Source of the DNA: an uncultured Fimbriimonadaceae bacterium | Lineage (GTDB): Bacteria > Armatimonadota > UBA10988 | NCBI GenBank assembly: GCA_964405335.1 | Contig: CAYONP010000009.1 | Coordinates: 12,074 to 76,073 of the forward strand | Length of the DNA: 64,000 nucleotides | Direction: 5' to 3' | Part shown: positions 5,966 to 51,022 of the stretch, piece by piece | How positions within the stretch are numbered: the stretch's first letter is position 1 | How the letters are laid out: the number at the start of each line of letters is the position of its first letter | The notes under the pieces: model-generated | The model's database searches: none | The model's input: only the letters and a program-made list of their open reading frames with translations | Told to the model about the DNA's origin: nothing | Position numbers and translations under genes: made by a program

Positions 5966-5977
5966 CCCTCCCGCGCC

Positions 5978-5998: not shown

Positions 5999-6034
5999 CT
6001 ACCCGGCGCGATCGACGTCTCTCCGGCGCGCGTC

Positions 6035-9287: not shown

Positions 9288-9390
9288 CGTCTTCTCCTTC
9301 GCCCACCGCGGCCACGTGGCCGCCGGCGCTAAATCGGATATGTAGCTCCGAACTCTGTGCGAAGTCTTTGCCGACGGTGCGAGGCAACGG
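9288..9390 (-). promoter_or_regulatory. Leader/promoter region of lipoprotein copy A; duplicated at 10789..10890
   Basis: About 100 bp about 90% identical to the region upstream of copy B. Contains a 14-bp perfect palindrome CGGCCACGTGGCCG (9309-9322), an AT-rich box (GGATATGTAG) unusual for this GC content and a GGGAGAAG Shine-Dalgarno-like motif before the ATG. Confidence 0.5.
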
Positions 9391-9505
9391 CGGCATCGCC
9401 ATGAGTCAGATGGCGCTTGTGGAAGCTCCGCATCAGCCTCGGCGTCGCCTCGTCCGAGACCTTCCACAGGCTCATCAACAGGCTCCTCACCCTCCCCCGG
9501 AGGCG

Positions 9506-9536
9506 CCCGCGACGGGTCGCTCCAACCCGTCGCGGG
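9506..9536. terminator. Hairpin (12-bp stem CCCGCGACGGGT / ACCCGTCGCGGG) downstream of lipoprotein copy B
   Basis: Directly 3' of the 9565 stop on the minus strand. Confidence 0.4.
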
Positions 9537-9564
9537 CACTGAGCGCCCCTGTCATGGGTGCTGG

Positions 9565-10788: not shown

Positions 10789-10890
10789 CGTCTTCTCCCT
10801 CGCCCGCCGCGGCCGCGCGGCCGCCGGCGCTAAATCGGATATATAGGTCCGAACTCTGTGCGAAGTCTTTGCCGACGGTGCGAGGCGACG
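10789..10890 (-). promoter_or_regulatory. Leader/promoter region of lipoprotein copy B (duplicate of 9288..9390)
   Basis: Palindrome here is CGGCCGCGCGGCCG (10810-10823): a different sequence from copy A but again a perfect 14-bp palindrome (compensatory change). Same AT-rich box GGATATATAG. Confidence 0.5.
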
Positions 10891-10931
10891 GTCGAACCGA
10901 ACCGGATCGGCCGACCAGGTTGGAGTTAGGA

Positions 10932-13900
10932 TCAGCCTGCAAGCCCGCGGAGGAGGCAGAGTGCTCGCTCGCCGGCCTGGCGGATGGTCCACCCGCGACC
11001 CTGTTCGGACGCGGCTTCGAACGCCTGCTCACCGAGCGTCTCACGCCATTGCGACAACGGCCCGGTGAGCTGCACGTCATGGACCTCGAGGGCCGGCGCG
11101 ACATTGGCGATGCGGTAGGCAGCGGCCGCAGACACGAGCCGGACCGCGTCGGCGGATGCGAGTGCCGGTATCAGGCTGACCCCCTCGATCGTGGCCAGCA
11201 CTCCGAGCTCGAGGTCGTGGCCCAGGGCGCGTTCGAGCACCTTGGCGTAGGCATCCACCGCGGCTGCCGGCCGGCCGCGCTCGCGTTCCAGATGCGCCAG
11301 GGCGACGTCGAGATAGGCCACCTGAAGGGGCTCGCCGGCCAGGTCCATCGCATCTCGTGCCTGGCGGAAGTACCACTCGGCCGGGCCGTAGTCGCCACGG
11401 CGTTGAGCGATCGCCGCCAAGCCGGCTTGATCGCTCGCTATCCGGTATGGCTGCTGGAGGACCTCGGCCAGCGACAAGGCCTGCCGATAGCCCGCCTCGG
11501 CGGCCGGTAGGTCGCCCTGGTGGAAAGCGATGCAGGCGACCATGCGAACGACGTGCTCCTCGAGTACGGGATCGCCTTCGCGCCGTGTGGCCGGCACGGC
11601 CTGAGCGAAGATCCGGCTCGCGGCTTCGAGGTTCTGGCTGCGGCGCAGCCAGTGCGCGATCATCACCAGCGACCAGACCGACGACCGGTCGTCCGCGCTC
11701 CGGCCGAGCTGGTCGAGGGCCTCGGCCTCCAGGTCGTCGGCCTCGGCCAGGCGCCCCTCGAGGCGCGCCAGCGTGCTCAGGCCGAACAGGGCGGTGGCCG
11801 CGGCGTTGCGATCCCCGAGCTCGCGAGCCAGGCCCAGATTCTGTTGCAGCCGGTCGGCGTCGGGCAGGCCCGGCATGGGACCGCCCGGTTGGTGGTCGCG
11901 CGCGAGCTGCAAACCGGCCATGTGCGTCAGCGCCTTCATCTGCTCGTGCCGGTCGCCGGCTTCGGCCCACAGCAGCAGGCTCTGTTCGGCCAGTTGGTAC
12001 GCCTCCAGCAGACGACCCTCAATGGTCGCCGCCACGTAGAGTCGTCCCAGGAAGGCGGCCAGCCGCCGCCGGTCCAATACCTGCTCGGCCGACTTCTGCG
12101 CGAGATGCCAGTGCCGGGCCGCTTCGGCGGCATCCTGATCGGCCGGCGGCAACAGCACCAGCAGATAGTGGGCCATGGCCTCGGCGGCGTGGTCACCCGC
12201 AGCAGTCCCGGCCCGCAGGGCCTCGGCGGCCCAGGTGGCGGCCTGGTCGTGACGGCCCAGCCGAAAGGCCAGCAGGCCGGCCGCCAGGGCCGCGGTCGCC
12301 CGAGCGGCAGTCAGCGTCTGGGCGCCCGGTGCGGCGAGCACAGCCTCCAGTTGTTCCAGGCCCTGGCTCCATCTGGCCTGCTGGTTCCAAAGCGCTCCGA
12401 GGGTGGCGGCCAATCGCAGGCCGTCGTCGGCCTGCTCCGCCCGCGACAGCGCTTCATCCAGGGCCATCTGAAGGTTGGCCTGCTCCTCGGCCAGTCGGCT
12501 AAGCCACACCGCCTCGTCGATCGGCCTGCCCGGCGCACCGTCGCCCAGCGCGGCGGCGAAGCAGGCGACCATCCGCGCCGACGCTCTCGGTCGCTCGCCG
12601 CGCTCGACCAACCGCTCAGCCGCGAACTCGCGGATCGTCTCGAACATCCGGTACCGCGGCTCGTCGCCCGTCAGGTCGAGCTGGAGCAGCGACCAGCCGC
12701 GGAGTAGCTCGAGGTAGTCTCTGGCCGAGGGCTCCTCGCCCACCGCTTCGGCGGCCTCGGCGCCGAAACTGCCGGCGAAGACGGACAGCCGCGCGAGGAA
12801 GGCCTGGAACGGCTCCGACAGCAGTTGGTAGCTCCAGGCGATGGCGGCTTCGAGCGTGCGGTGGCGTTCGGGCCGCCGGTCCGATCGCGCGGCCCGCCAG
12901 TGCAGCCGTTCGTCGAGCCGCTCGGCGAGGCGATGGACGCTCATCGACGGCAGGCGCGCAACCGCCAGCTCGAGCGCCAAGGGGATCCCCTCGAGGCCGG
13001 TGCAGACCGCGACTACCGCCGCCGCATTGCGTTCGCTCAAGACGAAATCAGGCACGGTGGCGCGGGCCCGATCGACGAACAGTTGCACACTCGGAACGCC
13101 GGCCACGGCGGCGATGTCGGCGCGCTCGCTCGGCAGGTCCAGCGGCTCGACCGGCACGGGTCGTTCGCCGGACAGGCCCAGTCTGCGCCGCGAGGTGGCC
13201 AGGCAGAGCAGCGACGGGCAGTCCTCGAGCAGCTTGCCGATGACCAGACCGGCCTCGGGCGTGAACTGCTCGAGGTTGTCCAGGATCAGCAGGCCGGGAT
13301 GCTCGCCAAAGAACCAGCGAAGCTGCTGATCCACGTGGCTCTGGGGTTCCAGGCCGATCCGGCGCAGAATCTCAAAGGTGAGGTCGGCCGCCGTTCGCAG
13401 GTCGGAAGCCTGAACGAACCAGGCCAGAGTGCCGCAGGTCCGCGCCATGTGCCAGCCGACCTCGACCGCCAGCCGTGTCTTGCCGCTGCCGCCCGGGCCG
13501 GTGAGGGTCACCAGGCGCGTGTCGTCGAGCAGCAACTCGGTCACCGCCGCGATCGCCGCCTCACGGCCATACGTTCGGCCCAGCACCGCGGGCAGCGCGG
13601 CGGTCACCGGCCGCTCCAGCGCCAATGGCTGCCCCACCGCGGCGCTGTCGGTGGCGAAGATCCCACAAGCCGCCGCTCCAGACCGGAGCCGGTACTCGCC
13701 CAGGCTAACCAGGCTCAAGTGCCGGCGGGCGCCCTGGCGCAGCAAGGCGGCGGTGGCCTCGGTCACGAGCAGTTGCCCATCCACCGCGGCGCGACGCAGT
13801 TGCTCGACCGATTCGGCTGCGGGACCGTCGAGCCGGAGGCTGACGTCAGCGGTATGGACGGCCAGCGCGAACTCGTTGTCGCGGACCCGCTCAGCGAAGG

Positions 13901-14891
13901 CGAACGCGTCGCCGGCGCGAGCAAAGGCGACCACGATGCCGTCGTCGTCGCGACGCGCCGGCACGGCACCGAATCGTTCGGCCTCGTCGGCAAGGCAGGC
14001 TGGCGCCGCGACGAAGGTCACGGTGCCGGTCAGGTCCGGATCACCGGCGGGCCGAAGGTCGAGCACCGCCAGGTCTTGGCGGGCCTTGTCGGGCTCGCCC
14101 AGCAGGGCCAGCAGCTCGGTGTCGGGTTCCCAGTCGCCGGTTCGGCGGCGCCTGGCGACGAACCCGTCGAGATGCCGACGAGCCGCCGCGCGGTCGTCCA
14201 CGGCCAGCTCGAGCTGCACGAGTCGACGGAGCAGTGGTTCGCAATCCGGCTCGGCCGAGTTGCCCAGGCGGGCCACCCGCAGGGCCTCGCCCGGCCGGCC
14301 GGCGGCGACATGCCACTCCACCAGCGCTTCCACTGCTTCGACGAAGCACTGCCGCAGCCGCGCCTCCTCGCTCAGCACCCACCGTTCGTAGCAGCAGGGC
14401 AGCAGCGGACCGCCATAGACCGACACGACCTGCTCGAATCGCGCTTGGCGCAACTCGTCGGTCGCCCGACCTGCCGCCTGGTAAGCCGCATCGAGCTGCT
14501 GCACGTCGGTCTCGAGCAGCTCATCCCGAACCCAGACCGACCGCCGGTCGGCTAGGACAAGCGTCTCCTTAGCCTGCTCCGGAGGGCAGAGCTGGCGGCG
14601 CAGGACGGATAGAGTGTAGCTCAGTCTGCCGCGCCCGCTGTCGGCTCCGCAACCGGGCCAGAGCAGCTCGATCAGCTCGTCACGTTCGTGCCGGCGGTGC
14701 GGGTGGTAGGTCAGGTAGGCGAGCAGTGAGGCCGCCTTCTGCGTGCGGAAGCGACAGAGCGTGCCGCCGGCATGCCGAACCTCGAGGGAGCCGAGCAGCC
14801 GTACCTGGTAGCCAACCACCTGACCGACCTTCCCCGACGGCGGACCTGCTCGCCCTGCGGAACAGAAGCGATGTGTACACCAGTGTGTCAA
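10932..14891 (-). CDS. SARP/AfsR-like transcriptional regulator: OmpR-type winged-helix DBD + BTAD + cyclase-like segment + NB-ARC P-loop ATPase + TPR repeats
   Basis: N-terminal YQVRLLGSLEVRHAGG...LLAYLTYHPHRRHERDELIELLWPG (SARP DNA-binding), Walker A LTGPGGSGKTRLAVEV, long C-terminal TPR-like helical repeats. True start may be an internal GTG near VGQVVGYQV. Confidence 0.8.
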   Translation of the reverse strand: MTHWCTHRFCSAGRAGPPSGKVGQVVGYQVRLLGSLEVRHAGGTLCRFRTQKAASLLAYLTYHPHRRHERDELIELLWPGCGADSGRGRLSYTLSVLRRQLCPPEQAKETLVLADRRSVWVRDELLETDVQQLDAAYQAAGRATDELRQARFEQVVSVYGGPLLPCCYERWVLSEEARLRQCFVEAVEALVEWHVAAGRPGEALRVARLGNSAEPDCEPLLRRLVQLELAVDDRAAARRHLDGFVARRRRTGDWEPDTELLALLGEPDKARQDLAVLDLRPAGDPDLTGTVTFVAAPACLADEAERFGAVPARRDDDGIVVAFARAGDAFAFAERVRDNEFALAVHTADVSLRLDGPAAESVEQLRRAAVDGQLLVTEATAALLRQGARRHLSLVSLGEYRLRSGAAACGIFATDSAAVGQPLALERPVTAALPAVLGRTYGREAAIAAVTELLLDDTRLVTLTGPGGSGKTRLAVEVGWHMARTCGTLAWFVQASDLRTAADLTFEILRRIGLEPQSHVDQQLRWFFGEHPGLLILDNLEQFTPEAGLVIGKLLEDCPSLLCLATSRRRLGLSGERPVPVEPLDLPSERADIAAVAGVPSVQLFVDRARATVPDFVLSERNAAAVVAVCTGLEGIPLALELAVARLPSMSVHRLAERLDERLHWRAARSDRRPERHRTLEAAIAWSYQLLSEPFQAFLARLSVFAGSFGAEAAEAVGEEPSARDYLELLRGWSLLQLDLTGDEPRYRMFETIREFAAERLVERGERPRASARMVACFAAALGDGAPGRPIDEAVWLSRLAEEQANLQMALDEALSRAEQADDGLRLAATLGALWNQQARWSQGLEQLEAVLAAPGAQTLTAARATAALAAGLLAFRLGRHDQAATWAAEALRAGTAAGDHAAEAMAHYLLVLLPPADQDAAEAARHWHLAQKSAEQVLDRRRLAAFLGRLYVAATIEGRLLEAYQLAEQSLLLWAEAGDRHEQMKALTHMAGLQLARDHQPGGPMPGLPDADRLQQNLGLARELGDRNAAATALFGLSTLARLEGRLAEADDLEAEALDQLGRSADDRSSVWSLVMIAHWLRRSQNLEAASRIFAQAVPATRREGDPVLEEHVVRMVACIAFHQGDLPAAEAGYRQALSLAEVLQQPYRIASDQAGLAAIAQRRGDYGPAEWYFRQARDAMDLAGEPLQVAYLDVALAHLERERGRPAAAVDAYAKVLERALGHDLELGVLATIEGVSLIPALASADAVRLVSAAAAYRIANVAPALEVHDVQLTGPLSQWRETLGEQAFEAASEQGRGWTIRQAGERALCLLRGLAG

Positions 14892-35684: not shown

Positions 35685-35843
35685 AGCTCTCTCCCGCCGG
35701 GCTGTTCGCGCCGTCGGGCGGGCCTCCTCCGCTGCCGGACCGGCGGTCTCGCGCCACACTGTGGGAACCGACGGAGGTTGACCGGCACTCCATCGGTGTG
35801 GTACATCTGCTGGTTGGCAGCACCGCGGAAGGCTGACGCACGC

Positions 35844-37574
35844 ATGGACGATACCCAGCGCGAACTCGACGTGCTCATTCGAGCGCGATACCCGATCCTC
35901 TACCTGGTCTCGTGGGAAGAGCCGCGGGTCTTGCGTGCCCTCCGTCAGATCGCCAAACGGCATGACAAAGAGATCCTGTGCTGGTCGGTGACCGACGGCT
36001 GGACCACCGCCGACGGCCGCACGCCGGTCCACACGCCCGACCGCTCGGCGAGCTACAGCTCGACCCGCAGCTCGAGCCGGACCACGCCGCTGGCGGCGCC
36101 ACGGAAGGTCAAGAGCAGCTCGGTCGAGGTCGACCAGGCGCTCGACGCGCTCGACCTGATCGACAAGTGGGGCGCCGACGACCGCAACGCCCGCGGGGCG
36201 TTGTTCGTGCTCAAGGATTTCGACCCGTACATCAGCGCGCCGGCGGTCGAGCGCCGGATGCGCGACCTGGCCTTTGCCCTGCCTTACTCGAGCTACAAGA
36301 CGATCATCATCATCTCGCCGCTGCTGAAGGTCCCGCAGCACCTCGAGAAGGACCTCACGGTGGTCGACTTCGACCTGCCCGGCTACCGTGACCTGGAGAT
36401 CATCCTCGACCGGATCATCGACTCGGTCAGCCGCGACGATCCCGATGCGGTGCAGCTCGAGGGCGAGGCCAAAGAGGCGTTCGTCAAGGCGGCGCTCGGG
36501 CTGACCTCGGCCGAGGCGGAAAACGTCTTCGCCAAGGCGCTGGTGATGGACGGCAAGCTCGAGCGGCTCGACGTCGAGGTGGTGCTGTCGGAGAAGAAGC
36601 AGATCGTCCGCAAGTCGGGCACGCTCGAGTATTACGAGAGCGAGGCCAAGTTCGCCCACATCGGCGGGCTCTCGGCGCTGAAGGACTGGCTGCGCAAGCG
36701 CAAGTCGAGCTTCACCGAGAAGGCGCGCGAGTTCGGCCTGCCCGAGCCGCGCGGCGCGCTGCTGATCGGCGTCCAGGGCTGCGGCAAGTCGCTCGCGGCG
36801 AAGGCCGTCGGCGCGCTGTGGGAGGTGCCGCTGCTGCGCTTCGACGTCGGCGCGGTGTTCGGCCGCTACGTCGGCGAGTCCGAGAACAACATGCGCAAGG
36901 CGATCCAGACCGCCGAGGCGGTGGCGCCGTGCGTGCTCTGGATCGACGAGCTCGAGAAGGGCTTCAGCGGCATGACCGAGTCGGGCGACTCGGGCACCTC
37001 GGCACGCGTCCTGAGCTACTTCCTGACCTGGCTGCAGGAGAAGAAGAAGCCGGTGTTCGTGATTGCCACCGCCAACGACGTGCAGAAGCTGCCGCCCGAG
37101 CTGCTGCGCAAGGGCCGGCTCGACGAGATCTTCTTCATCGACCTGCCGAGCCGCAAGGAGCGGCGCGAAATCCTCGATATCCACCTGCGCATACGCGGCC
37201 GCGACGTGGCCAAGTACGACCTCGAACGCCTGATCACCGCCAGCGAGGGCTACAGCGGCTCGGAAATCGAGCAGGCCATCATCGCCTCGCTGTACGACGC
37301 CTATGACAACGGCCGCGACATCACCACCGAGGACATCGAGCACAACCTGTTCGTCAGCGTGCCCATCTCGCGGACCATGGACTACAAGATCCGCCAGCTC
37401 CGCGACTGGGCCGCCGATCGCGCGCGCGTTGCCTCGTTCCCCGAAGACCTCGACGAGGCGCCGCCGACGGCCACCGGCGGCGAGGTGGTGGTGACCAGCG
37501 TCGACGTCGATGAGACACCGCCGCCTCCGGCCGACGTGGACGTCGAGATCCAGACGCCGAGCAGCGGCGAGTGA
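35844..37574 (+). CDS. AAA+ family ATPase (single AAA domain, about 280-aa N-terminal domain of unknown function)
   Basis: ATG at 35844 in frame with track ORF 34257..37574; Walker [14 protein letters not shown], Walker [12 protein letters not shown], second region of homology [28 protein letters not shown]. Lower GC3 than neighbours. Confidence 0.85.
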
Positions 37575-38800: not shown

Positions 38801-40132
38801 ATGCGCCGATTTGCATGTCTGTTGTTCGCCGGCTGGCTGGGCCTGGCGCCCACCGGCGCGGCCGTGCCGAAGCTCAGCTACAACCCGTCGCACGGCGAGA
38901 TGCTGCGCTTTCTGGTCGAAGCGAACCGCGAGACCCGCTTCGTCACCACCGTCGCCGCCGCCGGGCGGTCGGTCCGCGGGCGGCAGATTCCGGTGGTCAT
39001 CTGCCAGGACCCGACGGTCGACCCGCTGAACATGACCCGGCTGCTGATCATGGCGCGGCAGCACGGCAACGAGCCGGCGGGGACGATTGCCCTGCTCGAG
39101 CTGATCCGCGACCTGGCCGCCGGGCAGGCCGGACCGCTCGAAATGCAACTTCAGCGCGTCTGCCTGTTGCTGGTGCCGATGGTCAACCCCGACGGCGCCG
39201 ACGCCAACACGCGCCGGAACGCCAACAACATCGACCTGAACCGGGACTGGAACAGCCGCACGCAGCCCGAATCGCAGGCGATGGAGTACCTCCACAACCT
39301 GTGGACTCCGCACGCCGTGCTCGATCTGCACGAGCTCTGGTTCAACGACGCGCACGGGATCAACACCATCGAGGCGCCCGGCGGTGGAGCGCGGGTGCCG
39401 GCCGAGGTCGCCGCCGAATGCCGGCGACTGCAGCAGTACATCCTCACCCGCCTGCAGCAGGCCGGGTTCCCCGTCCGCCCGAGTTTCTGGGACGGCGGCA
39501 ACGATGGCTCGCTGGCGCACCGCCACTTCTCACGCGACCACGGCCGCATGGCGCTGCTGTTCGAGAGTGAGCGTCAGGGCTTCCGCACGCCGCTGCCGCG
39601 CCGGGCGCAGATGCACCGCATCGGCGTGCAGACGGTGATCGACTATTACTACAGCGGAGGCTTCGGCCCGCGCGACAGCGAGGCGGCTCTGGTGCCCTCG
39701 CCCGGCGGCGGTGAAGCGCTGCCGCCGCCGTCGCTCGACGGGTCGCCGACGCCGCCCGGCGGGGCGAATGCGGCCGCCGCGCCGGCGCGGCCGCTCGGAC
39801 CCGAGCCCGAACCCACGCCGACTCGGCCGCAGATCCGGTTCATCACGCCCGAGGTGACGCAGGAGGTGCATGGGACGGTGATGCTCGAGCTCGCGCTCAG
39901 CGGCATCGACGACCTCGAAACGCTGTCGGTCTTTGTCGACGGGCAGGGCCGGTACTTCAGCAATCGGCCGCCGTTCCGGTTCGCCTGGGACACCAGCGAC
40001 CTATCGCCCGGCCGGCACGTGGTCCTGGTCCGCGCGCGGCGGCGCAGCGGCGAGACGGTCGAACGCGAGCAGCTCTTCAGCGTCGCCCGCGGCCGGCCCG
40101 ATACGGTGACCGAGAGCGACGAGGAAGAGTGA
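38801..40132 (+). CDS. Secreted M14-family zinc carboxypeptidase-like protein with C-terminal Ig-like domain (paralog of 23536..24513)
   Basis: Signal peptide; MARQHGNEPAG (HxxE), VNPDGADANTRRNANNIDLNRDWN, LDLHELW; C-terminal beta-rich domain. Confidence 0.75.
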   Translation: MRRFACLLFAGWLGLAPTGAAVPKLSYNPSHGEMLRFLVEANRETRFVTTVAAAGRSVRGRQIPVVICQDPTVDPLNMTRLLIMARQHGNEPAGTIALLELIRDLAAGQAGPLEMQLQRVCLLLVPMVNPDGADANTRRNANNIDLNRDWNSRTQPESQAMEYLHNLWTPHAVLDLHELWFNDAHGINTIEAPGGGARVPAEVAAECRRLQQYILTRLQQAGFPVRPSFWDGGNDGSLAHRHFSRDHGRMALLFESERQGFRTPLPRRAQMHRIGVQTVIDYYYSGGFGPRDSEAALVPSPGGGEALPPPSLDGSPTPPGGANAAAAPARPLGPEPEPTPTRPQIRFITPEVTQEVHGTVMLELALSGIDDLETLSVFVDGQGRYFSNRPPFRFAWDTSDLSPGRHVVLVRARRRSGETVEREQLFSVARGRPDTVTESDEEE

Positions 40133-41202
40133 ACCTCTGGGTCGAGGTCGACCCCACCGCGCTCGAGGCCAACGCCCGCGCCGTGACCGAGCTGCTCGGC
40201 AGCACGTCGCTCTGCGCCGTGGTCAAGGCCAACGGCTACGGCCACGGCGCCGTCATCGCCGCCCGCGCCTTCCTCGCCGCCGGCGCCGAGCGGCTGGCGG
40301 TGAGCAGCGTCGACGAGGCGGTCGAACTCCGCGCCGCCGGCCTCGACGGAACCATCCTGCTGCTCGCCTCGCACGCGCCGGACGAGGCCGAGGCGGTCGT
40401 CGAACACCGGCTGACCGCCACGATCAGCGAGCTCGGCGCGGCCGAGCGGCTCTCCCGCGCAGCGGGCGATCAGACGGTGCCGATTCACCTGCTGGTCGAC
40501 TGCGGCATGGGCCGCGACGGCTGCCTGCCCAGCGAGTCGCCGGCCCTCGCCGAGGCCGCCGCGGCGCTGCCGGGCCTCACGATCGAGGGCGTCTACACCC
40601 ACTTCCCGACCGCGCTGGCGCGCGACAAGTCGGCCACGCGCCGGCAACTGGGGCTGTTCCTGGAAACCGTTACCCGGCTCCCCACCAGGCCACCGCTGGT
40701 CCATGCGGCCAACTCGGCGGCGGCGGTCGACCTGCCCGAGTCGCGGCTCGACCTCGCCCGCATCGGGACGCTGCTCTATGGCCAGTACCCGAGCCGCTGG
40801 GTGACCCGCGCCGTCGAGCTGCGCTCCGCCTGGCGGCTGTGCGCCCGGCTGGTCGAGGTGCGGACCCTGCCGGCCGGGGCGAGCATCGGCTACGGCAGCG
40901 AGCACCGCCTGCGCCGCGCGACGCGGGTCGGCACGCTGCCGGTCGGTTGGGCTCACGGTTTCACGTTGCAGCCGGCCAGCCTCCACCGCGGCCTGCGCGG
41001 CCTGGCCCACGCGCTACGGCCCGAGCCGGCGGCGGTGACGCTGCACGGTCGGCGCTGCCCGGTGCTCGGCCGCGTGGCGATGCAGAGCTGCGCGGTCGAC
41101 CTGACGGCCGCGCCGGAGGCGCAGGTGGGCGACGTCGCCGAGGTCCCGGCGCGGCGGGTGACGGTGCCGCCGAACGTGGCGCGGGTGGAGGTCAGGTCGT
41201 GA
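40129..41202 (+). CDS. alr: Alanine racemase
   Basis: PLP-lysine motif AVVKANGYGHGAV near the N-terminus, 357 aa; GTG start overlapping the upstream stop. Confidence 0.85.
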   Translation: MNLWVEVDPTALEANARAVTELLGSTSLCAVVKANGYGHGAVIAARAFLAAGAERLAVSSVDEAVELRAAGLDGTILLLASHAPDEAEAVVEHRLTATISELGAAERLSRAAGDQTVPIHLLVDCGMGRDGCLPSESPALAEAAAALPGLTIEGVYTHFPTALARDKSATRRQLGLFLETVTRLPTRPPLVHAANSAAAVDLPESRLDLARIGTLLYGQYPSRWVTRAVELRSAWRLCARLVEVRTLPAGASIGYGSEHRLRRATRVGTLPVGWAHGFTLQPASLHRGLRGLAHALRPEPAAVTLHGRRCPVLGRVAMQSCAVDLTAAPEAQVGDVAEVPARRVTVPPNVARVEVRS

Positions 41203-41944
41203 GGGATTCGGCGATTTGCCAGGCGCCGATGGCGGTGAGTCGGGATTGCAGCGCGGTAGCGATGGCCACGTCATCCCAGACCTTGGTGTAGAAGTCCTGA
41301 CAGCCGGCGCCGGCGGCCCATCCCGCCATGTAGGACCAGGCGTGGGCCTTGTGTTCAGGATTGCCACCGACGCGCTGATCGCTCAGCCACTGCTCGACAG
41401 CGGCCGCGCGGTCGGCGTAGGCCTCGGCCAGCGCGGCGCAGACCAGGCGTTCGAGGGATTGCTGGTCGGGCACGCCGGGGGTTGGCGGATCGGCGGTCTG
41501 CCAGACGATCGCCTGCAGTCGTGTGCCGCCGATCATCACGATCGCGCCATCGACCACCCCGGCGTCTGGGTCGAACTCGCGTGCCAGCTCGAGGTAGGCA
41601 CCAACGTTAGGCGGCACAACGGTGGGCGCCGGCCGGTCCGAGTCTGTCACGAGCACCAACTGATCGAGCTGCTTGCCGATGTCGCGCTCGCGGAGGAGTC
41701 GGCGCGCCAGAGCCGTTCGTTTGGCTACACCGTGCGCCGGGACGACGCGAACGAAAAGCCCACTCGGCGTCGTGAAACCGAACTGCCCGCGACTCACCTC
41801 CTCTCGCCACGGGTCGAGTACAATCTCGCGGTCTCCGATGGTCACCGTTGTGGGCTTGGCACAGCCGAGGTGCCGAAGCCACCCGGCCAAGAACGCCCGA
41901 TCGTCGATACCCTCGCAGATGACCACCGACTGCGCCGGCCTCAT
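41192..41944 (-). CDS. Toprim-like (DUF4276-like) protein, putative nuclease partner of the upstream ABC-type ATPase
   Basis: 250 aa; N-terminal VVICEGIDDRAFLAGWL (conserved Glu) and later LVLVTDSDRP (DxD) fit Toprim topology. Start overlaps the ATPase stop by 4 bp. Confidence 0.55.
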   Translation of the reverse strand: MRPAQSVVICEGIDDRAFLAGWLRHLGCAKPTTVTIGDREIVLDPWREEVSRGQFGFTTPSGLFVRVVPAHGVAKRTALARRLLRERDIGKQLDQLVLVTDSDRPAPTVVPPNVGAYLELAREFDPDAGVVDGAIVMIGGTRLQAIVWQTADPPTPGVPDQQSLERLVCAALAEAYADRAAAVEQWLSDQRVGGNPEHKAHAWSYMAGWAAGAGCQDFYTKVWDDVAIATALQSRLTAIGAWQIAESLTT

Positions 41945-42921
41945 CGCAGGTCCTGCTCGATCTGTCCGCGCGAGAAGGCCGCCTCCTCGCCGGTGAACCG
42001 GGCGTGTTTCAGCAGGCCGTCCTCCAGCACCAGCGAGTAGACCGCGAGCTGCTCCAGCTCGTCGCCGGCCTCGGCCAGCAGCGCATCAATCAACTCCAGG
42101 CTATGCGTCGAGATGATCACCTGCACCCCCCGCCGCACCGCCGCCCAGACGACCTTCGCCGCCTGCCAGATGGCCGCGGGGTGGAGGTGGGCCTCGGGCT
42201 CCTCTAGGAGGGCGAGGCCGTTGGCAATGACCGCCAGTTCCAGGCCAAGATGAACCAGACCGTAGACGCCGTCGCCAGAGACCGCGATCGGTACGGCATG
42301 CGTGCCGAAATCGGCGTAGACCACGGGTCGGCCGGCCTCGGTCAGGATGTCGCCGGTCACCACCTGCGGCAGCAACTCCCGCAGCGCAGCGTTCGCCTCG
42401 TCGCGCCGCCCATCGCGGCGCATCGTCGACCACAGCTCGTCGAGAGCTGGACGATCCGGGCGTCGCGGATCCACCAGATGCACGGCAGGAAGCCCGACCA
42501 TGGTGAGGCTCGTCTTGTCGTAGTGTCCGCGACCGCTCGGCTGGAGGTTGGCGTGCGTCGACAGTCGCTCACCGTTCAGCCGGACGGTCGCTTGCAGCAG
42601 TGTTTGGCTTCCTTCATGGGTCAGTGAGTCGATCGACGTGTGGCGCGTGCTGTCCTCTGCCGACGCCACCTCGACCACCGCCGGTAGCTCCGAACCTGCC
42701 CGCCAAAGCAACCACCTCCCCGGCAGCTGAGTCCCGGTGTGCCGCGCCGCCGCAATGCCAATCCCCTCACCCGGCACCGGATGCGCCCCAATCAACATCG
42801 CATCCAGCACCGTGCTCTTGCCGCACCCATTCGGCCCGGTGAGGATCACCAGCGGCGTCAGGTCGGTCAGCTCGCCCTCGCGAATCCCGCGTAGACGCTC
42901 GATCTTGATCGACGTGATCAT
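41941..42921 (-). CDS. AAA_21/ABC-type ATPase (OLD/AbiL/PARIS-AriA-like), 326 aa
   Basis: MITSIKIERLRGIREGELTDLTPLVILTGPNGCGKSTVLDAML (Walker A), LLEEPEAHLHPAAI (Walker B / D-loop signature of AAA_21), VIISTHSLELIDAL (H-loop). Confidence 0.75.
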   Translation of the reverse strand: MITSIKIERLRGIREGELTDLTPLVILTGPNGCGKSTVLDAMLIGAHPVPGEGIGIAAARHTGTQLPGRWLLWRAGSELPAVVEVASAEDSTRHTSIDSLTHEGSQTLLQATVRLNGERLSTHANLQPSGRGHYDKTSLTMVGLPAVHLVDPRRPDRPALDELWSTMRRDGRRDEANAALRELLPQVVTGDILTEAGRPVVYADFGTHAVPIAVSGDGVYGLVHLGLELAVIANGLALLEEPEAHLHPAAIWQAAKVVWAAVRRGVQVIISTHSLELIDALLAEAGDELEQLAVYSLVLEDGLLKHARFTGEEAAFSRGQIEQDLR

Positions 42922-42979
42922 CCACGTCTCCGAGCCGCTATCTTAGCACCTCGGAGGCGTCGACTGGGTGGGGTTGCGC

Positions 42980-44551
42980 TCAGCTCCGCGGCACCAGCAC
43001 CGCCAGCGTGCGCTTGATCTCAGGCCAGGCGGAGCGCAGGAAGTCCTCCGCCGCGGCGGTGGTCTCCTCGACCGTGCCGCGCCAGGCGACGCCGAAGTGG
43101 ACCTGCGTCCAGACCCGGTTGCGGTCCCGCACGCTGCTGCCGGTGTACTTGGTCCAGTCGGTGATGGTCACCTCGCCGTCGGTGTAGGTGTACATGGCGA
43201 GATGCACCGGCAGACCGTCGAGGCCGACCACGACGTGCTCGAACGGTAGCCGCTCGCCGTCGAGCTCGAACTCGACCTGCTTCTGGTCGAGTATCTGGTT
43301 GCCGCCGCCGCGGATGCAGGCCGTCGGCGGGTGCAGGCTGCGCCGGCCGCGGCCGCAGATGACGTGGATGTAAGCCCCGGCGCGGAGCCGCTCGTTGACG
43401 TACTGGCGGCTGATCACCGCGACGTTGCCCAGCTCCTCGAACACGCCCTGGTCGACCTCGCCCTCTTCGGGGCAGATCCAGTCGCCAAACCGGAGCGGGA
43501 TCTGGCTCAGGTCGACGTCAGGCACTTCGGTCACCGGCGGCGCGACCGCCAGCCCGGTGAAGTGCAGACCAACCAGCAGGGCCGCCATGGCCGCCAGCGG
43601 CGCGAAGTCGAGCCGGAAGCGCGGCCGACCGTCGCCGGCCGGCGGCGGCGCCGCGGCGATGTCGGCCGACGGGCCGACAATCAGCCGAGCGGCAAGCACC
43701 AACACGCCGATGGCCACGATGAGCAGGATGGGCCCACTGAGCTTGTCGTGAAAGAAGCCGACGGCAAAGTCGTGGCCCCAGATGCGGCCGACACAGAGAA
43801 TCGAGAACAGCCGGATCACGTTCGAGGCGACGGCGATCGGCACGGCCAAGGCCAGGATTGCCGCTTTGCGCGCCGGCGTGGTGTCGGTCAGGTAGGCGAC
43901 CAGCACGCCGACCATGGTCAGGCCCATGATGGCCTTGAACCCCGAGCAGGCCACGCCGACGACATAGTCCTCGCCGTCGAGGACCATCACCGCGCCGTTG
44001 GCGGTCACCTCGGCGCCGGTGACGATGTACATCAGCACCGTGCCCAGCTTGGCGCTGAGCATCTGCATCGGGAAGCTCATGTCGTAGAGCCAGAGCCAAC
44101 TGATCGGCACGGCGAAGAAGAAGAAGCTGAGTGCGAACCAGGTCAGGCGATAGACCTGCGGCCCGCCGACGGTGAGCACCAGGCCATGCCAGAGGACCAC
44201 GCCCGAACAGGCGATGAAGAAGTTGATGTCGCTCTGCTGGCCGCGCAGGTAGAGCAGCGCGGCGGCGCCGACGACGGCCAGGCCTGGCCACCAGAAGCGC
44301 CACTCGGCGGTGGCCAGCGCGGCCCGAGCGCGCCAGACGAGCCAGCCCGAGATCACCGGCACCAGGTAGCCGTGCGAGTAGTAAGGGTTCTCGTCCCAGC
44401 CGTCGACGACCCATTTGAGCTGGAAGTCATAGGCGAGGTAGAAGGCGTAGACCAGGGCCGCCAGGCCGACCAGGGCCAACGGCTCGGGCGGTCGCACGGC
44501 CTGGCGTTCGTCGCCCGGCGGGTCGGCCGGGGTGTCGACCAGGTCACTCAT
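42980..44551 (-). CDS. Exosortase (EpsH/Xrt family) fused to a C-terminal EpsI-like domain
   Basis: Polytopic membrane N-region with exosortase motif ENPYYSHGYLVP, Arg in LYLRGQ and the conserved Cys region; C-terminal 180-aa soluble domain after the last TM. Confidence 0.8.
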   Translation of the reverse strand: MSDLVDTPADPPGDERQAVRPPEPLALVGLAALVYAFYLAYDFQLKWVVDGWDENPYYSHGYLVPVISGWLVWRARAALATAEWRFWWPGLAVVGAAALLYLRGQQSDINFFIACSGVVLWHGLVLTVGGPQVYRLTWFALSFFFFAVPISWLWLYDMSFPMQMLSAKLGTVLMYIVTGAEVTANGAVMVLDGEDYVVGVACSGFKAIMGLTMVGVLVAYLTDTTPARKAAILALAVPIAVASNVIRLFSILCVGRIWGHDFAVGFFHDKLSGPILLIVAIGVLVLAARLIVGPSADIAAAPPPAGDGRPRFRLDFAPLAAMAALLVGLHFTGLAVAPPVTEVPDVDLSQIPLRFGDWICPEEGEVDQGVFEELGNVAVISRQYVNERLRAGAYIHVICGRGRRSLHPPTACIRGGGNQILDQKQVEFELDGERLPFEHVVVGLDGLPVHLAMYTYTDGEVTITDWTKYTGSSVRDRNRVWTQVHFGVAWRGTVEETTAAAEDFLRSAWPEIKRTLAVLVPRS

Positions 44552-46390: not shown

Positions 46391-47497
46391 TCACCCGGCC
46401 AGCGCGGTGCGATAGGCCTGCAAGTGCCGCTCGGCCGACCGCCGCCAGGTGAAGAGCGCCGCGCGCTCACGCGCCAGACCGGCCCGCCGCGCGCGCTCGC
46501 CGTCGTCGGCCAGCAGCCGGACCAGCGTCGCCGCCCATTCCTCGGCGGCATCGGGCGGCAGGTGCGGCACCGCCTCGCCGGTGACCTCGACCAGCGCCGG
46601 CGTGTCGCTGACCAGCGGCAGCGTGCCGCAGGCGGCCGACTCGAGCGGCGGCAGGCCGAAGCCCTCGTAGTAGGACGGATAGCAGAATAGCGTGGCGCCG
46701 GTGTAGAGCGCTGGCAGGTCGCCGTCGGGCACGTAGCCGGCAAAGCGGATGCGATCGCTCAGGCCGAGCCGCTCAATCGCCGCCAGCACCGGCGCCTGGC
46801 CCCAGCCGACCCGGCCGACGATGACCAGCGGCGTCTCGTCGCCGAGCCGGCGCAACTCGGCCATCGTCCACACCAGGCCGAGCAGGTTCTTGCGCGGCTG
46901 CAGCAGCCCGACGCTGAGCAGATAGCGCTCGGGCAACGCGTACTTCTCCCGCACCACCGCGACGGCATCGGCGCCGGCCGGCGCGAACTCCGCGCCGATC
47001 CCGTTCGGCACGGCGAAGACACGGTCGGGCGGCAGGCGATAGAGCCGCAGCAGGTCACGCCGCGTCGTCTCGCTCACCCCAACCACGGCCCCGGCGCGGC
47101 GGCAGGCGCGGGGCACCGACCAGCGGAGCAGCAGTCGGTCGCGCCAACGAAAGGTCCGCGGCAGCAGCTCGTAAGAGCAGTCGTGGACGGTGGTGACGAA
47201 CGGGCAGGGCAGCCACGGCGGGGCGCTGTATTGCAGGTGGACCAGGTCGACCCCGAGCCGGGCGGCCAGCCGCGGCAGGGCAACCAGCGTCCACAGCCGG
47301 CCGCCCGGTTGAGCGACGACCTCGATGCGGAGGTTGGCACGCCGCGGCAGCAGGCCGGCCTCGGGCCGCTGGTCGACCGCGGCGATGAACTGCCATTCCG
47401 GCGCGGCAGCCGGCAGTTCGCGCAGCAGGCCGAGCCAGTAGGTGCGGTCGCCGGTCTTGCGGCCGATGATCGGCCGCGCGTCGAGCAGGACCTTCAT
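46391..47497 (-). CDS. Glycosyltransferase family 4 (GT1 fold)
   Basis: Start ATG at 47497; C-terminal PSYYEGFGLPPLESAACGTLPLVSD motif (EX7E). Confidence 0.8.
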   Translation of the reverse strand: MKVLLDARPIIGRKTGDRTYWLGLLRELPAAAPEWQFIAAVDQRPEAGLLPRRANLRIEVVAQPGGRLWTLVALPRLAARLGVDLVHLQYSAPPWLPCPFVTTVHDCSYELLPRTFRWRDRLLLRWSVPRACRRAGAVVGVSETTRRDLLRLYRLPPDRVFAVPNGIGAEFAPAGADAVAVVREKYALPERYLLSVGLLQPRKNLLGLVWTMAELRRLGDETPLVIVGRVGWGQAPVLAAIERLGLSDRIRFAGYVPDGDLPALYTGATLFCYPSYYEGFGLPPLESAACGTLPLVSDTPALVEVTGEAVPHLPPDAAEEWAATLVRLLADDGERARRAGLARERAALFTWRRSAERHLQAYRTALAG

Positions 47498-47605
47498 GCG
47501 GCGATGATGCCCGCCGGCACGGCGGCGGTCAAGCGGGCGGTCCGCGGGATCGACGACCGCGACAGCTAGAGCGTGCAAGCGCACGCCGACCAGCCCAAAT
47601 GGTAG

Positions 47606-48556
47606 ACAAACCGGGCAGTCGTCGCTTACCACTCGGTCGCCAGCCAGGGCAACGTCACCGCCACGCCGCTCTATGACGCCTGGGGCACCGAGCGCACGCA
47701 GGCGACCCCCGACCCCATCGGCTACAAGGGCCAGACCGGCTACTACCAAGATGTCGAGACCTGTCTTGTGCTATGTACGTATCGCTACTACGACCCCACC
47801 CGCGGCCGCTGGCTGACCCGCGACCCGATTGGTTATGGTGGCGGGCTCAACTTGTATGGGTACTGTGGGGCGGATCCGGTGGGCGGGGTGGATCCGCTTG
47901 GTCTGCAGGCAACCGAGCTCATCCCGGAGGCGCCAGAGGTCCTCCTCCGGGAACTTGCCGAAGAGACCACGGAGAACGTGTCGCGTCGCACCTCGCAGAA
48001 CGTAGCCGGACGGGCGGCGCGCAGCGTCGGCACACGGGCGGCCACCTCAACCGGTGCGTCGCTCGGTTGGGCTGGCACATTCTGCCGCGTAACGGGCTGG
48101 GGCATGGTTGCCGCGTCGATCGTGCAGGGCTACGCGCTGTACGAGGACATTCGGGGCGCGCGGGTCGCAGCGTGGGCCGCCGAACCGGCGCCAGGATACT
48201 ACGAGAGGCGACAGAGGCGCAAGCAGCAACCGGATGAGCATTCCTACATACGCGTGGTGGGCTCATCGGCCGAATGGGCGGCCGTCCGCCAAGCAGGCGG
48301 GCTCGTACCCAGCACGGATCCCAGACTTGGTGCAGGGAACACACGAATCGCGGACCCCAGCTGGTACCCCTACCTGAGGGACCTCCATCCAGACGCGCCC
48401 GGCATGGTGATCGTCACGTTCTCGCAGTCCGTCGTCGAAATGGGCCCGGATGTGTACCGTCGTGGCGATGCTCCCCTCGCATTTGTCGTCCGCGCGGCTG
48501 CGGCCAACCGCCGCGCAGTTCGCCTGGAACTTCGCGATCTCAGCCCCATCTACTGA
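47606..48556 (+). CDS. Orphan rhs C-terminal module 1: RHS repeat-associated core tail (YRYYDPTRGRWLTRDPIGYGGGLNLYGYCGADPVGGVDPLGL) + about 200-aa variable toxin tip; no RHS body or canonical start
   Basis: Open frame begins right after an in-frame TAG at 47603; first in-frame start-like codon is GTG 47768. The YDAWG...GYKGQTGYYQDVET segment is the end of the last YD repeat. Confidence 0.6.
   Translation, partial: TNRAVVAYHSVASQGNVTATPLYDAWGTERTQATPDPIGYKGQTGYYQDVETCLVLCTYRYYDPTRGRWLTRDPIGYGGGLNLYGYCGADPVGGVDPLGLQATELIPEAPEVLLRELAEETTENVSRRTSQNVAGRAARSVGTRAATSTGASLGWAGTFCRVTGWGMVAASIVQGYALYEDIRGARVAAWAAEPAPGYYERRQRRKQQPDEHSYIRVVGSSAEWAAVRQAGGLVPSTDPRLGAGNTRIADPSWYPYLRDLHPDAPGMVIVTFSQSVVEMGPDVYRRGDAPLAFVVRAAAANRRAVRLELRDLSPIY
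47710..47893 (+). repeat. 184-bp direct repeat (RHS core-tail coding sequence), second copy at 49720..49903, about 95% identical
   Basis: Aligned by eye; identity ends exactly at the codon after DPxGGVD, where the toxin tips diverge. Confidence 0.7.
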
Positions 48557-49105: not shown

Positions 49106-49702
49106 ATGGCATTGATGGTCTGGGAACTGCGGCCGTCCGGCGGCTTCGTGCCGTTGGTCGACCTGAGCGATGAGGCCGCCGGCGAGAACATGGCTGCCAA
49201 TGGCTGGGGCCCGGGCGTGGGTTGGGGCTTCAACGGTCGGGTGTATGGCGAGGCGTTCGTGCCGCCTCGGCTCACGCCGCTGTTCGATCGCCAGCATCGC
49301 GGCATGGTGGTCAGCGACTGCCCCATGTGGGGCGACACCAGCGCTCCGTTGCTGAGCCGGCGGGCGGTGGAGGCGCTACGCGACATGCTGGAGCCGAACG
49401 GTGAGCTGTTGCCGGTGATCTGCGACTACGAGGAGTTCTGGATCTTCAACACCACTCGGCTGCTCGATGCACTGGACGAAGCGGAGTCAGAACTTCGCCG
49501 CTTCCCGAGCAGCGGCCGCATCATGAAGATTGAGCGCTATGAGCTTCTGGCGGATCAGCTCGGTGAGTGCCCTATCTTCAAGCTCACGTTGGATGCTCAC
49601 GGACGCGCCCTGGTCACCAAGGAGTTCATCGACCGCGTGAACCAATCGGCGTTGGTTGGGTTCAGCTTCTGTCCAATCTGGACTTCAGCACGACAGTCAT
49701 AG
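49106..49702 (+). CDS. Hypothetical protein (198 aa) within the rhs tip array, possibly an orphan immunity protein
   Basis: ATG start; stop TAG 49700-49702 is in the same frame as, and directly abuts, the next RHS core tail. Confidence 0.45.
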   Translation: MALMVWELRPSGGFVPLVDLSDEAAGENMAANGWGPGVGWGFNGRVYGEAFVPPRLTPLFDRQHRGMVVSDCPMWGDTSAPLLSRRAVEALRDMLEPNGELLPVICDYEEFWIFNTTRLLDALDEAESELRRFPSSGRIMKIERYELLADQLGECPIFKLTLDAHGRALVTKEFIDRVNQSALVGFSFCPIWTSARQS

Positions 49703-51022
49703 CGCACCCAGACCGCACCCGACCCCATCGGCTACAAGGGCCAGACCGGCTACTACCAAGATGTCGAGACCGGCCTGGTGCTTTGTACGTATCGCTACTA
49801 CGACCCCACCCGCGGCCGCTGGCTGACCCGCGACCCGATTGGTTATGGTGGTGGGCTCAACTTGTATGGGTACTGCGGGGCGGATCCGGTGGGCGGGGTG
49901 GATGCGACTGGAGAGTTCGTACAGATCCTAGTCGGTGCAGGCATCGGCTTGGCCTTCGACGCCGCCGTGCAGTTGGCGACAACCGGCCATTGGGACTGGC
50001 GGAGGGGCGCCGCGGCCGCGGCGGCGGGCGCGGCAACCGCATTGCTCGGGCCAGCCGCCGGAATGCTGGCCCGCGGGCTTGGCGGTGGGCTGCTTGGTGC
50101 TGCCGGCGCCGGTGCGGCGATGGGTGCGGCCGGCGCCGCCGTCGGCACCGGCGTCGGCAATGCACTCAACGGGCAGCCGCTGACCAAACGGATGCTCGGC
50201 AACATGGCGGCGGGCGCGGTCGGCGGCGCTATCATGGGTGGCGCCGGCTACGCGATGCGGCAGATGCTCGGCCGTGCCCGCGGCAATCCTACCGCGCGGC
50301 AGACGGGCGGTTGCTTCGTTGCCGGCACGCCCGTTCAGATGGCTGATGGTACGAGCAGACCGATCGAGGAGGTCAAAGCCGGCGACCGGGTCCTCGCCCG
50401 AGATGAGGTCACCGGCGCAACCGGCGCGCAGACCGTCGAAGAGGCCTTCGCCCACGTCGCGGCGTCCAGCGTGGTGCTGCACCTCGACTCCGGCGAGACG
50501 GTCGAGACCACCGACGAGCATCCGTTCTACGTGGCTGCCACGGGCTTCGTGCCGGCCGGCCGGCTGGCGGTGGGCAACGCGATCGTCACCCGCGCCGGCC
50601 CGCCGGCGGTCGTGGTGGCGATCGAGCACCGCCGGCGTCCGCTGGAGGTTCACAACCTGCGCGTGGAGGGTGCTCACACCTACTTCGTGGGCTTGTCGGG
50701 CGGCGGGGTTTGGGTGCACAATCAGGCGTGCCCGCCGGCGAGTGGTGGGCGTCCGGCAGGCTATGGGCGGAAGGCCCCAGAGACCGTCCACCCGCCGATG
50801 CGGACCAACGATGGCTTGGAGGCCGCACAGCGCTTCCTGGGCCCAGGCTATCGCGAAGTCTCGCCGGGCAGGTATGTCTCTGCCGACGGCACCCGGCAAG
50901 TACGGCTTGGCACCCACGAGGTGATACCTGGGCAGGAGCACATTCACTTCGAGACACTGCAACCGAACTCTGTCGACGGCACGTTCACAGTGAGGCATAC
51001 CGACACCTACCCGCTGAGATAG
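49703..51022 (+). CDS. Orphan rhs C-terminal module 2: RHS core tail + pretoxin Hint domain + about 95-aa toxin tip
   Basis: RTQTAPDPIGYKGQTGYYQDVETGLVLCTYRYYDPTRGRWLTRDP...; Gly/Ala-rich linker; Hint blocks CFVAGTPVQMADGTSRPIEEVKAGDRVLARDE ... EVHNLRVEGAHTYFVG ... VWVHNQAC; then distinct tip (GRPAGYGRKAPETVHPPM...HIHFETLQPNSVDG...). First start-like codon is GTG 49778. Confidence 0.6.
   Translation, partial: RTQTAPDPIGYKGQTGYYQDVETGLVLCTYRYYDPTRGRWLTRDPIGYGGGLNLYGYCGADPVGGVDATGEFVQILVGAGIGLAFDAAVQLATTGHWDWRRGAAAAAAGAATALLGPAAGMLARGLGGGLLGAAGAGAAMGAAGAAVGTGVGNALNGQPLTKRMLGNMAAGAVGGAIMGGAGYAMRQMLGRARGNPTARQTGGCFVAGTPVQMADGTSRPIEEVKAGDRVLARDEVTGATGAQTVEEAFAHVAASSVVLHLDSGETVETTDEHPFYVAATGFVPAGRLAVGNAIVTRAGPPAVVVAIEHRRRPLEVHNLRVEGAHTYFVGLSGGGVWVHNQACPPASGGRPAGYGRKAPETVHPPMRTNDGLEAAQRFLGPGYREVSPGRYVSADGTRQVRLGTHEVIPGQEHIHFETLQPNSVDGTFTVRHTDTYPLR

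Follow-up and report, generated by a model that had tools for sequence, protein, structure and literature searches.

What is the role of a small ATPase gene which lies on the minus strand between alr (40129-41202, plus strand) and an exosortase EpsH/EpsI gene (42980-44551, minus strand, with TPR and GT4 genes coming next), and which is continued by the gene of a putative nuclease? A major theme of bacterial immunity is the module made of an ABC ATPase and a nuclease (OLD, Gabija, PARIS, Septu, Menshen); to our knowledge, the recognition of infection by the ATPase is understood for PARIS only. In the window, i.e. the whole stretch of 64,000 nucleotides analysed here, the first-pass annotation had read the two genes as a split OLD-like module of an ATPase and a Toprim protein, and this central reading is supported by the results below. 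With a probability of roughly 60%, the pair is a nuclease module of two components, gated by ATP and of the OLD/PARIS type; anti-phage defence or abortive infection is its most likely function.

Gene A (41941..42921) codes for a 326-aa ABC-type ATPase (AAA_15/AAA_21, OLD-ABC-like) and gene B (41192..41944) for a 250-aa protein with a Toprim domain and a C-terminal helical domain, DUF3226-like and OLD-nuclease-like, which is the putative nuclease effector. All coordinates within the pair refer to the minus strand. Both genes start with ATG in the ORF listing, which reproduced the coordinates, the lengths and the 4-bp overlap first proposed, and all the motifs quoted at that time (GPNGCGKST, LALLEEPEAHLHP and STHS in A, CEGIDDR and VTDSD in B) were verified by translation. 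The overlap is the ATGA tetranucleotide at 41941-41944 (sequence GCGATGAGGC). Together with the C-terminal DLR of A (D324, L325 and R326, invariant in the family alignment A2), this stop/start overlap occupies 41941..41952 and is compatible with translational coupling. The A-B pair is an obligate operon: A and B were adjacent at 51 of 51 loci, always as two separate ORFs, and among 39 loci the stop and start codons overlapped by 4 nt in 33 and by 1 nt in 5, a gap being found in one. No conserved third gene accompanies them, as in the 122 flanking clusters each family is present at most two times. A and B are not chance ORFs, since A passes the Pfam thresholds and, for both proteins, the AlphaFold models are of high confidence (pLDDT 91.7 and 92.2, respectively) and the homologue families are large (more than 458 clusters for A, 603 representatives for B).

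The assignment of A to the AAA_21-type ATPases was borne out by profile search, A scoring 51.3 bits against Pfam AAA_21 (PF13304; gathering threshold 27) and 55.5 bits against AAA_15 (gathering threshold 32.1). The conservation of its motifs was scored over the 29 homologues of alignment A2. In the Walker A/P-loop GPNGCGKST (residues 29-37, 42811..42837), G29, N31, G34, K35 and S36 are invariant; in the Walker B and D-loop region LALLEEPEAHLHP (residues 236-248, 42178..42216), L238, E240, E241, P242, E243, H245, H247 and P248 are invariant; in the H-loop STHS (residues 271-274, 42100..42111), T272 and H273 are invariant and S274 is conserved in at least 90%. The fold of A is that of an ABC head. 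Its insert is beta-rich in the model (strands 81-134) and is followed by two short helices (160-183), without coiled coil.

For B, the structure prediction gave a Toprim domain followed by a helical domain (helices 164-249, the first one spanning residues 164-175 and the C-terminal one, which is variable, residues 244-249). In the fold search the best solved match was PH0156 and the next ones were C-terminal regions of OLD nucleases, in agreement with the Toprim fold initially proposed. The glutamate and the DxD pointed out at the same time are essentially invariant in 211 homologues. The glutamate motif CEGIDDR (41897..41917) contains E11 (203/203 homologues) and D15 (200/203), whereas the VTDSD motif (41636-41650) contains the Toprim DxD, D101-S-D103 (41636..41644; D101 in 207/211, D103 in 208/211). 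In the helical domain, S163-L-E165 (41450..41458) lies at the start of the first helix and provides putative metal-B ligands (T, S or C in 201/211, L in 210/211, E in 209/211), and a lysine, K199 (41348..41350; 204/211), is conserved at the start of the helix 197-209. In BpOLD, the corresponding elements are E400/E404, T506-x-E508 and the catalytic K562 (PMC6755086). The spacing of E11 and D15, a glutamate with an acidic residue at +4, is that of E400/E404, and S/T163-L-E165 and K199 come in the same order as T506/E508/K562. On that analogy D101/D103 may be the counterparts of D455/D457, S163/E165 those of T506/E508, and K199 that of the catalytic K562. A full two-metal site of the OLD type seems to be kept in this family.

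The label DUF4276 given to B in the first pass was rejected, as no match at E<=1 was obtained for B or for 32 homologues. The DUF4435 model and the generic Toprim models of Pfam, including Toprim_N, likewise gave no match at E<=1 for these proteins; OLD-like_TOPRIM was matched by two scanned homologues, weakly (E 0.28 and 0.01). DUF3226 (PF11536) was matched by 11 of the 32 B-family members, one of them above threshold, and the B protein of the window scores 11.6 bits, below the gathering threshold of 27. PH0156 of Pyrococcus horikoshii (PDB 2p62) is presumably a DUF3226 member. PDB sequence searches with the B-family profile and with the member P0015 gave noise only and did not find 2p62, so that the link of B to PH0156 and to OLD is structural only. 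No literature on DUF3226 was found, and neither DUF3226 nor PH0156 has a described function; B suggests one for this structurally solved, unannotated fold.

Among the PADLOC models, the best match of A was PDC-M38 (4.3e-22, over a partial stretch), a candidate system which has likewise a two-gene A+B design and on which no publication was found. PDC-M38B was the only PADLOC family matched by B-family members (7/32, best 0.0015), and the B protein of the window matched it with an E-value of 0.047 over 20 residues. Judged by these profile matches, B is a divergent relative of DUF3226 and of PDC-M38B. The scores are far below those of a genuine PADLOC pair, such as the PDC-M25 pair of locus L004 (2e-149 and 1.7e-94), and the pair was not assigned to PDC-M38. 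The 239-aa protein of this second ATPase pair in L004, considered as a possible paralogue of B, gave an hhalign probability of 0.4% and is PDC-M25B. The PADLOC models would not call a system at the window locus. Current defence-finder models do not detect the pair, which therefore enlarges the portion of the pan-immune system still to be catalogued.

Taken broadly, the pair has what OLD/PARIS-like systems have in common: an ATPase whose Walker A, Walker B and H-loop are intact, a conserved Toprim glutamate and DxD, and coupling of the two proteins, here in one operon. The split arrangement itself is less general than first written. An AAA_21-type ATPase does stand in operon with a Toprim protein here, but Old and GajA are fusions, and only PARIS and AbiL, a further ABC-ATPase-plus-effector defence system, are split. 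In Class 1 (P2 Old, TsOLD, VcOLD) and Class 2 (GajA, BpOLD), both modules belong to one chain of ~520-630 aa (the range of the solved chains and of the PADLOC models), whereas the top 150 homologues of B measure 178-285 aa and therefore include no fused member. Class 2 has moreover a UvrD-like partner and Class 3 a retron. Neither was found adjoining the pair: no helicase or reverse transcriptase neighbour was present among the loci examined, and no retron RNA was detected with Rfam. PARIS, or Class 4 OLD, associates the ABC ATPase AriA with AriB, a Toprim nuclease of the DUF4435 family (PF14491) to which B does not belong, so that the pair is not PARIS sensu stricto. AriA is a protein of about 55 kDa with helical and coiled-coil insertions forming a hexameric propeller (PMC11464382); A differs from it by its 326 aa, its beta-rich insert with two short helices and its lack of coiled coil. 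B also differs from the effectors of Septu PtuAB (HNH) and Menshen (inPIN), and the NsnA required by Menshen NsnB-NsnC and the methylation genes required by MADS (MAD3) are absent here. The pair is thus, as first noted, smaller than the characterised systems and itself uncharacterised. With a size about a third below that of PARIS, no coiled-coil arms, a confident fold and an apparent two-metal site, the family would lend itself well to structural and mechanistic work as a minimal model.

From these elements we infer the following scheme. B would be the effector, its Toprim and helical domains forming an OLD-type two-metal active site in which E11 and D101/D103 would hold metal A, D15 and S163/E165 metal B, and K199 would stabilise the transition state. 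A, which consists of a compact ABC ATPase head and lacks coiled-coil arms, would be produced together with B by translational coupling, bind it and hold it in an inactive state. Recognition of an infection cue would fall to the surface formed by the hypervariable beta-rich insert of A (residues about 76-150). Binding of the cue, with ATP binding or hydrolysis at an A dimer, would release or activate B, which would then cleave nucleic acid, either DNA, like OLD and Gabija, or tRNA, like AriB, and so stop phage production.

The insert belongs to a larger exchangeable central cassette, residues 61-232 of A (42226..42741), which comprises the beta-rich insert (residues 76-150, 42472-42696), the two helices and a signature-like SGDG (42268-42279). 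Between the window and L054, a near-identical strain, these residues are 47% identical, against 99-100% on either side, and dS is about 1.0 in the cassette versus 0.015-0.05 in the flanks. Family-wide, pairwise identity falls to 0.10-0.20 for residues 76-150 versus 0.52 for the core. An assembly chimera was ruled out, since two independent runs yielded each allele, with the same flanks both times. Positive selection on point mutations was also ruled out: as dS too is raised about 50-fold, the divergent segment is explained by recombination. Different middle sections in near-identical strains are as expected for an immune sensor. In B, dN/dS is elevated (omega about 1). Further alleles, or a site empty of the pair, were sought in JGI metagenomes with an exact 29-mer from the leader of the pair, with 0 matches. 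We tentatively propose, as a possibility on which we would not yet rely, that the pair is a minimal PARIS-like immune module in which the beta-rich insert sets the trigger specificity and is swapped as a cassette by homologous recombination, the conserved sequences coding for the ATPase head serving as anchors. A single natural population would maintain alternative alleles, and the nuclease would adapt along with its partner. In that case the specificity swap has already taken place in nature, each of the two alleles would recognise phage cues of its own, and a direct handle would be available on how ABC-ATPase defence sensors read their trigger. A two-allele cassette in otherwise identical strains is a ready-made test of where specificity resides.

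The same operon could be thought to be a selfish, toxin-antitoxin-like addiction module, B being the nuclease toxin and A the neutralising ATPase, and to persist by post-segregational killing or genomic stabilisation. The tight, translationally coupled arrangement, the description of AAA_21 by Pfam as 'putative AbiEii toxin, Type IV TA system' and the long-lasting, stable presence of the pair at fixed sites of the chromosome, surrounded by housekeeping genes, are all compatible with it, as is the lack of viral or plasmid copies: no relative of B was found in IMG/VR, GenBank phages or PLSDB plasmids. However, cassette exchange in a non-catalytic insert of A and the raised dN/dS of B better fit a fast-evolving external partner than neutralisation, and PARIS AriB alone is only mildly toxic, AriA being required for its activation (PMC11464382). 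We consider this explanation unlikely; it is not truly exclusive of defence, as toxin-antitoxin and abortive-infection functions overlap.

The surroundings of the pair had been described as an accessory, conflict-rich neighbourhood into which it was inserted. The neighbours alr and the exosortase locus are as described, and two orphan Rhs C-terminal tips are present nearby (at about 47.8 and 49.8 kb), but insertion was not demonstrated: the GC content of the pair is only slightly lower than that of the window (67.5% vs 70.6%). The window contains no tRNA, Rfam match or credible boundary repeat, and no integrase or transposase family was present among the genes searched; a mobile-element origin, for which viral and plasmid relatives of B were also sought, received no support. 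Other clades have the pair in a stable position among housekeeping genes. Outside the window's own strain group its neighbours are PEPCK, 2-oxoacid dehydrogenase E2, TonB receptors, radical SAM enzymes and prophage genes, among others. The distribution of the pair is patchy, and across a phylum it is not a core element and has no common gene order. In about 8 planctomycete species, it is found in synteny and has diverged about as fast as its flanks. GT4 glycosyltransferase genes also flank it in a separate planctomycete clade, and Hpt-GT4 and LptD-KdsC are conserved flanks in Planctomycetota. Planctomycetota, Armatimonadota and Myxococcota, from which the family comes, are phyla almost absent from experimental defence work.

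Such residence would also suit a housekeeping enzyme, a Toprim nuclease regulated by ATP that serves DNA repair or recombination, with a logic like that of RecF/RecR or SbcCD, or else the maturation of RNA, in the manner of RNase M5. The overwhelmingly metabolic or housekeeping neighbours, the planctomycete synteny with its flank-like divergence, the position 58 bp after the exosortase gene, that strand showing no terminator-like site, and the structural matches of A, whose best ones are SMC and Rad50 heads and to which a weak match to the RecF N-terminal model is added, point in this direction. We hold this role to be rather improbable, somewhat less credible than addiction. A function as accessory factor of the exosortase/PEP-CTERM envelope locus, as part of the TPR-exosortase operon upstream, is very improbable and largely refuted by the absence of co-occurrence with exosortase elsewhere, the exosortase being a neighbour only in the window's own strain group and no role in protein sorting being obvious for a Toprim nuclease paired with a cytoplasmic ABC head, in spite of the common strand, the 58-bp gap, the lack of a terminator-like site on that strand, the identical arrangement in L054 and L055 and the planctomycete GT4 genes.

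Co-transcription of the ATPase-nuclease pair with the exosortase operon is possible, since no terminator-like site was detected on the minus strand in 40900-43300, the sole one being on the plus strand. The 58-nt leader between the exosortase stop codon and the ATG of A (42922..42979, minus strand) is identical in L054. A leader hairpin was rejected as a conserved feature of the family (median z of 0.42, with 2 of 39 loci below -2); in the window it is stable, with an MFE of -31.8 kcal/mol (z -2.96), and its 3' arm pairs with the GGAG Shine-Dalgarno sequence.

Translation of the two ORFs placed gene A (41941-42921, minus strand, ATG start), coding for a 326-aa ABC-type ATPase, and gene B (41192-41944, minus strand, ATG start), coding for a 250-aa putative nuclease, exactly where the first-pass annotation had put them, with 4 nt (ATGA) common to both. 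All the motifs it had listed were found: A carries GPNGCGKST, LALLEEPEAHLHP and STHS, and B carries CEGIDDR and VTDSD. The 3' end of B overlaps by 11 bp the convergent alanine racemase gene alr (40129-41202, plus strand), and the exosortase EpsH/EpsI gene (42980-44551, minus strand), itself downstream of TPR and GT4 glycosyltransferase genes, stops 58 bp ahead of the A start. At 67.5%, the GC content of the two genes is slightly lower than the window mean (70.6%).

The pairing was analyzed in 53 loci, drawn from metagenomes and from 46 species genomes. In 51/51 loci with sequence at that place, the gene immediately upstream of B, in the same orientation, is an A homologue, and the A stop overlaps the B start in 38 of the 39 scorable loci (NTGA in 33, TGATG in 5). 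The A-B pair is thus an obligate operon. Homologues of B amount to 603 representatives (50% clusters) among 1.84 billion proteins; the best 150 of these are 178-285 aa long and therefore none is a fusion. A homologues form >458 clusters.

In BpOLD, a Class 2 OLD nuclease, the catalytic set comprises the Toprim glutamate E400, which binds metal A, E404 four residues on, the DxD motif D455xD457, T506-x-E508, which binds metal B where the first helix of the helical domain begins, and K562 of the same domain (PMC6755086). The counterparts in B are, in the same order, E11, D15, D101xD103, S163-L-E165 and K199. The predicted structural elements match as well as the order, S163-L-E165 beginning a predicted helix (164-175) and K199 another (197-209), and we infer from both a one-to-one equivalence of the residues. 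The Toprim glutamate and DxD proposed from the window alone hold across the homologues: E11 is kept in 203/203, D101 in 207/211 and D103 in 208/211 unique sequences. D15 is found in 200/203, T, S or C at position 163 in 201/211, E165 in 209/211 and K199 in 204/211. The conservation of these seven positions is strong evidence, at the sequence level, in favour of an active two-metal nuclease.

The earlier description of a small OLD-like ATPase-Toprim pair stands as far as a minimal, OLD-like variant is concerned; the split arrangement itself is not that of Class 1-3 OLD nucleases, to which A-B does not belong because those are fusions whereas A-B is divided into two genes. A-B is not a member of PARIS either: B is not a DUF4435 protein, and the insertions and size of AriA, the PARIS ATPase, are not found in A; a likeness in working logic to PARIS or OLD is proposed. 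By score, the pair falls short of membership in both DUF3226 and the PADLOC candidate PDC-M38. The most fitting description is that of a new variant within the OLD-family ATPase-Toprim kind, minimal and split, which forms a sister group to the DUF3226/PH0156 fold, itself uncharacterised. The ATPase-Toprim architecture is already a known theme; the value of A-B resides in its small size, apparently complete active site and unusual host phyla, and current defence-finder models leave it unrecognised. Its chief added value is a natural two-allele cassette in A.

This cassette was revealed by comparison with L054, the same locus in a near-identical strain (TPR 99.6%, exosortase 100%, B 97.2%, leader identical), in which A is only 70.8% identical to that of the window. 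All divergence is confined to residues 61-232 (47% identical); residues 1-60 are identical and 233-326 carry one difference. Synonymous divergence is about 1.0 in this segment and 0.015-0.05 in the parts of A around it; the segment was therefore acquired by recombination, not by point mutation. Each allele was found twice, between the same flanks both times, in independent sequencing runs (window/L055, 99.95% identical; L054/L056, 98.5%), and an assembly chimera is therefore excluded. The two alleles are mutual closest sampled relatives, the next best being about 36% identical. The cassette coincides with the hypervariable, indel-rich part of A in the whole family, where pairwise identity is 0.10-0.20 (residues 76-150) versus 0.52 in the core. 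Between window and L054, B shows 7.5 nonsynonymous versus 2.5 synonymous changes (omega about 1.0), with 3 of its 7 substitutions within the last seven residues; for the two flanking genes combined, the counts are 2 versus 14. In a second case, L039 versus L041, the flanks are 87-93% identical, the A core 67%, the A middle 22% and B 43%; at the DNA level, alignment is limited to the stretches around Walker A and Walker B and to the final third of B. Fast, localised turnover of a non-catalytic A surface with frozen catalytic motifs is what one expects of an arms-race sensor.

In PARIS, an ABC ATPase assembly holds the Toprim nuclease, which is freed upon ATP-dependent recognition of a phage protein and then cleaves tRNA (PMC11464382); regulation of a nuclease by an ATPase has also been proposed for Gabija, Septu and Menshen (PMC12065111). 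With PARIS as the best template, the most likely mechanism (probability about 0.6) would be as follows: A would dimerize via its ABC head and bind B, its variable insert would sense an infection cue, and an ATP-coupled rearrangement would release or activate B, whose OLD-type two-metal site would cut nucleic acid; the substrate could be DNA, the target of OLD and Gabija, or tRNA, the target of AriB.

The main points against a defence role are that no experimental work on the A-B family, DUF3226 or PDC-M38 was found in the literature, the absence from mobile elements and the mostly housekeeping neighbourhoods. No relatives were found in IMG/VR, GenBank phages or PLSDB plasmids, and among 122 distinct flanking-protein clusters, the majority metabolic or housekeeping, no neighbour family recurs more than twice. 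The accessory, conflict-rich setting first suggested is not established, and the pair does not usually sit in a classic defence island. A minority of flanking clusters match defence models (PDC-M25, SspH, Type II MTase, PDC-S05, PDC-S09, MADS components), and in L004/L005 the pair has a clear PDC-M25 system on one side and prophage terminase, portal and capsid genes on the other. The obligate operon could be read as a TA-like addiction module, which leads the alternatives and is nevertheless unlikely. Next comes a housekeeping repair or RNA-processing enzyme, likewise an unlikely reading. The pair is present in 46/185,579 species genomes, mostly Planctomycetota, with Armatimonadota, Myxococcota (Sorangium cellulosum So ceGT47, Paraliomyxa miuraensis) and Acidobacteriota, all with ≤49% identity to the window's B. 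Synteny exists within clades: about eight planctomycete species carry it between GT4/phosphoribosyltransferase and LptD-like/HAD genes, with a divergence similar to that of the flanks, and in four Phycisphaerae it follows PEPCK. The family is thus rare, patchy and core to no phylum, yet the pair, once acquired, can remain in place for long. A role as accessory of the exosortase locus, adjacent in the window, is very improbable.

In L004, a prophage is bordered by a small defence cluster: A-B comes directly after a PDC-M25 A/B pair (2940-4824 and 4895-6829) and a 644-aa gene that is unannotated and shared with L009, and the prophage genes (8880-14138) follow just downstream. GT4 glycosyltransferases flank the pair in the window (46391-47500, minus strand) and in an unrelated planctomycete clade (L010, 2972-4165; L025, 2273-3745); their weak matches to Pfam 'GT4-conflict' (27-33 bits, GA 26) are probably a generic GT4 signal. 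Fragmentary or partial A or B detected by tblastn in L033 (about 4950-5970), L036 (about 4145-5479), L050 (about 6001-6745) and L053 (about 6001-6692) suggests frameshifted or decaying modules in some Chthonomonadaceae, Gemmataceae and Phycisphaerales genomes. In the Chthonomonas locus L041, a second A-like fragment (168-725), which matches A residues 145-326 at 40% identity, is located some 4.3 kb upstream of the complete pair and may represent another copy or a remnant.

Elsewhere in the window, two orphan Rhs C-terminal tips (47768-48556 and about 49793-51000, plus strand) share an identical core ending and differ in their C-terminal domains; a Pfam search of two ORFs of this region (47768-48553, 49567-50343) gave no match, and the region resembles an rhs orphan-toxin array whose toxin and immunity candidates are unannotated. 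A classical AAA+ gene (PF00004 plus AAA_lid_3; 35700-37574, plus strand), whose long N-terminal region matched no family, lies upstream of acetate kinase. The pair is flanked by a 16-nt perfect inverted repeat, CTGCGCTCCGCCTGGC / GCCAGGCGGAGCGCAG (40819-40834 and 43024-43039), with both arms inside coding sequence (alr and exosortase) and a chance expectation in 3 kb that we roughly estimate at about 0.01. The leader of A (42922-42979, minus strand) folds into a stable hairpin (-31.8 kcal/mol, z -2.96), and the GGAG Shine-Dalgarno is sequestered by its 3' arm. This hairpin, of the same sequence in L054 and without conservation across the A-B family, might control translation locally or terminate the exosortase operon.
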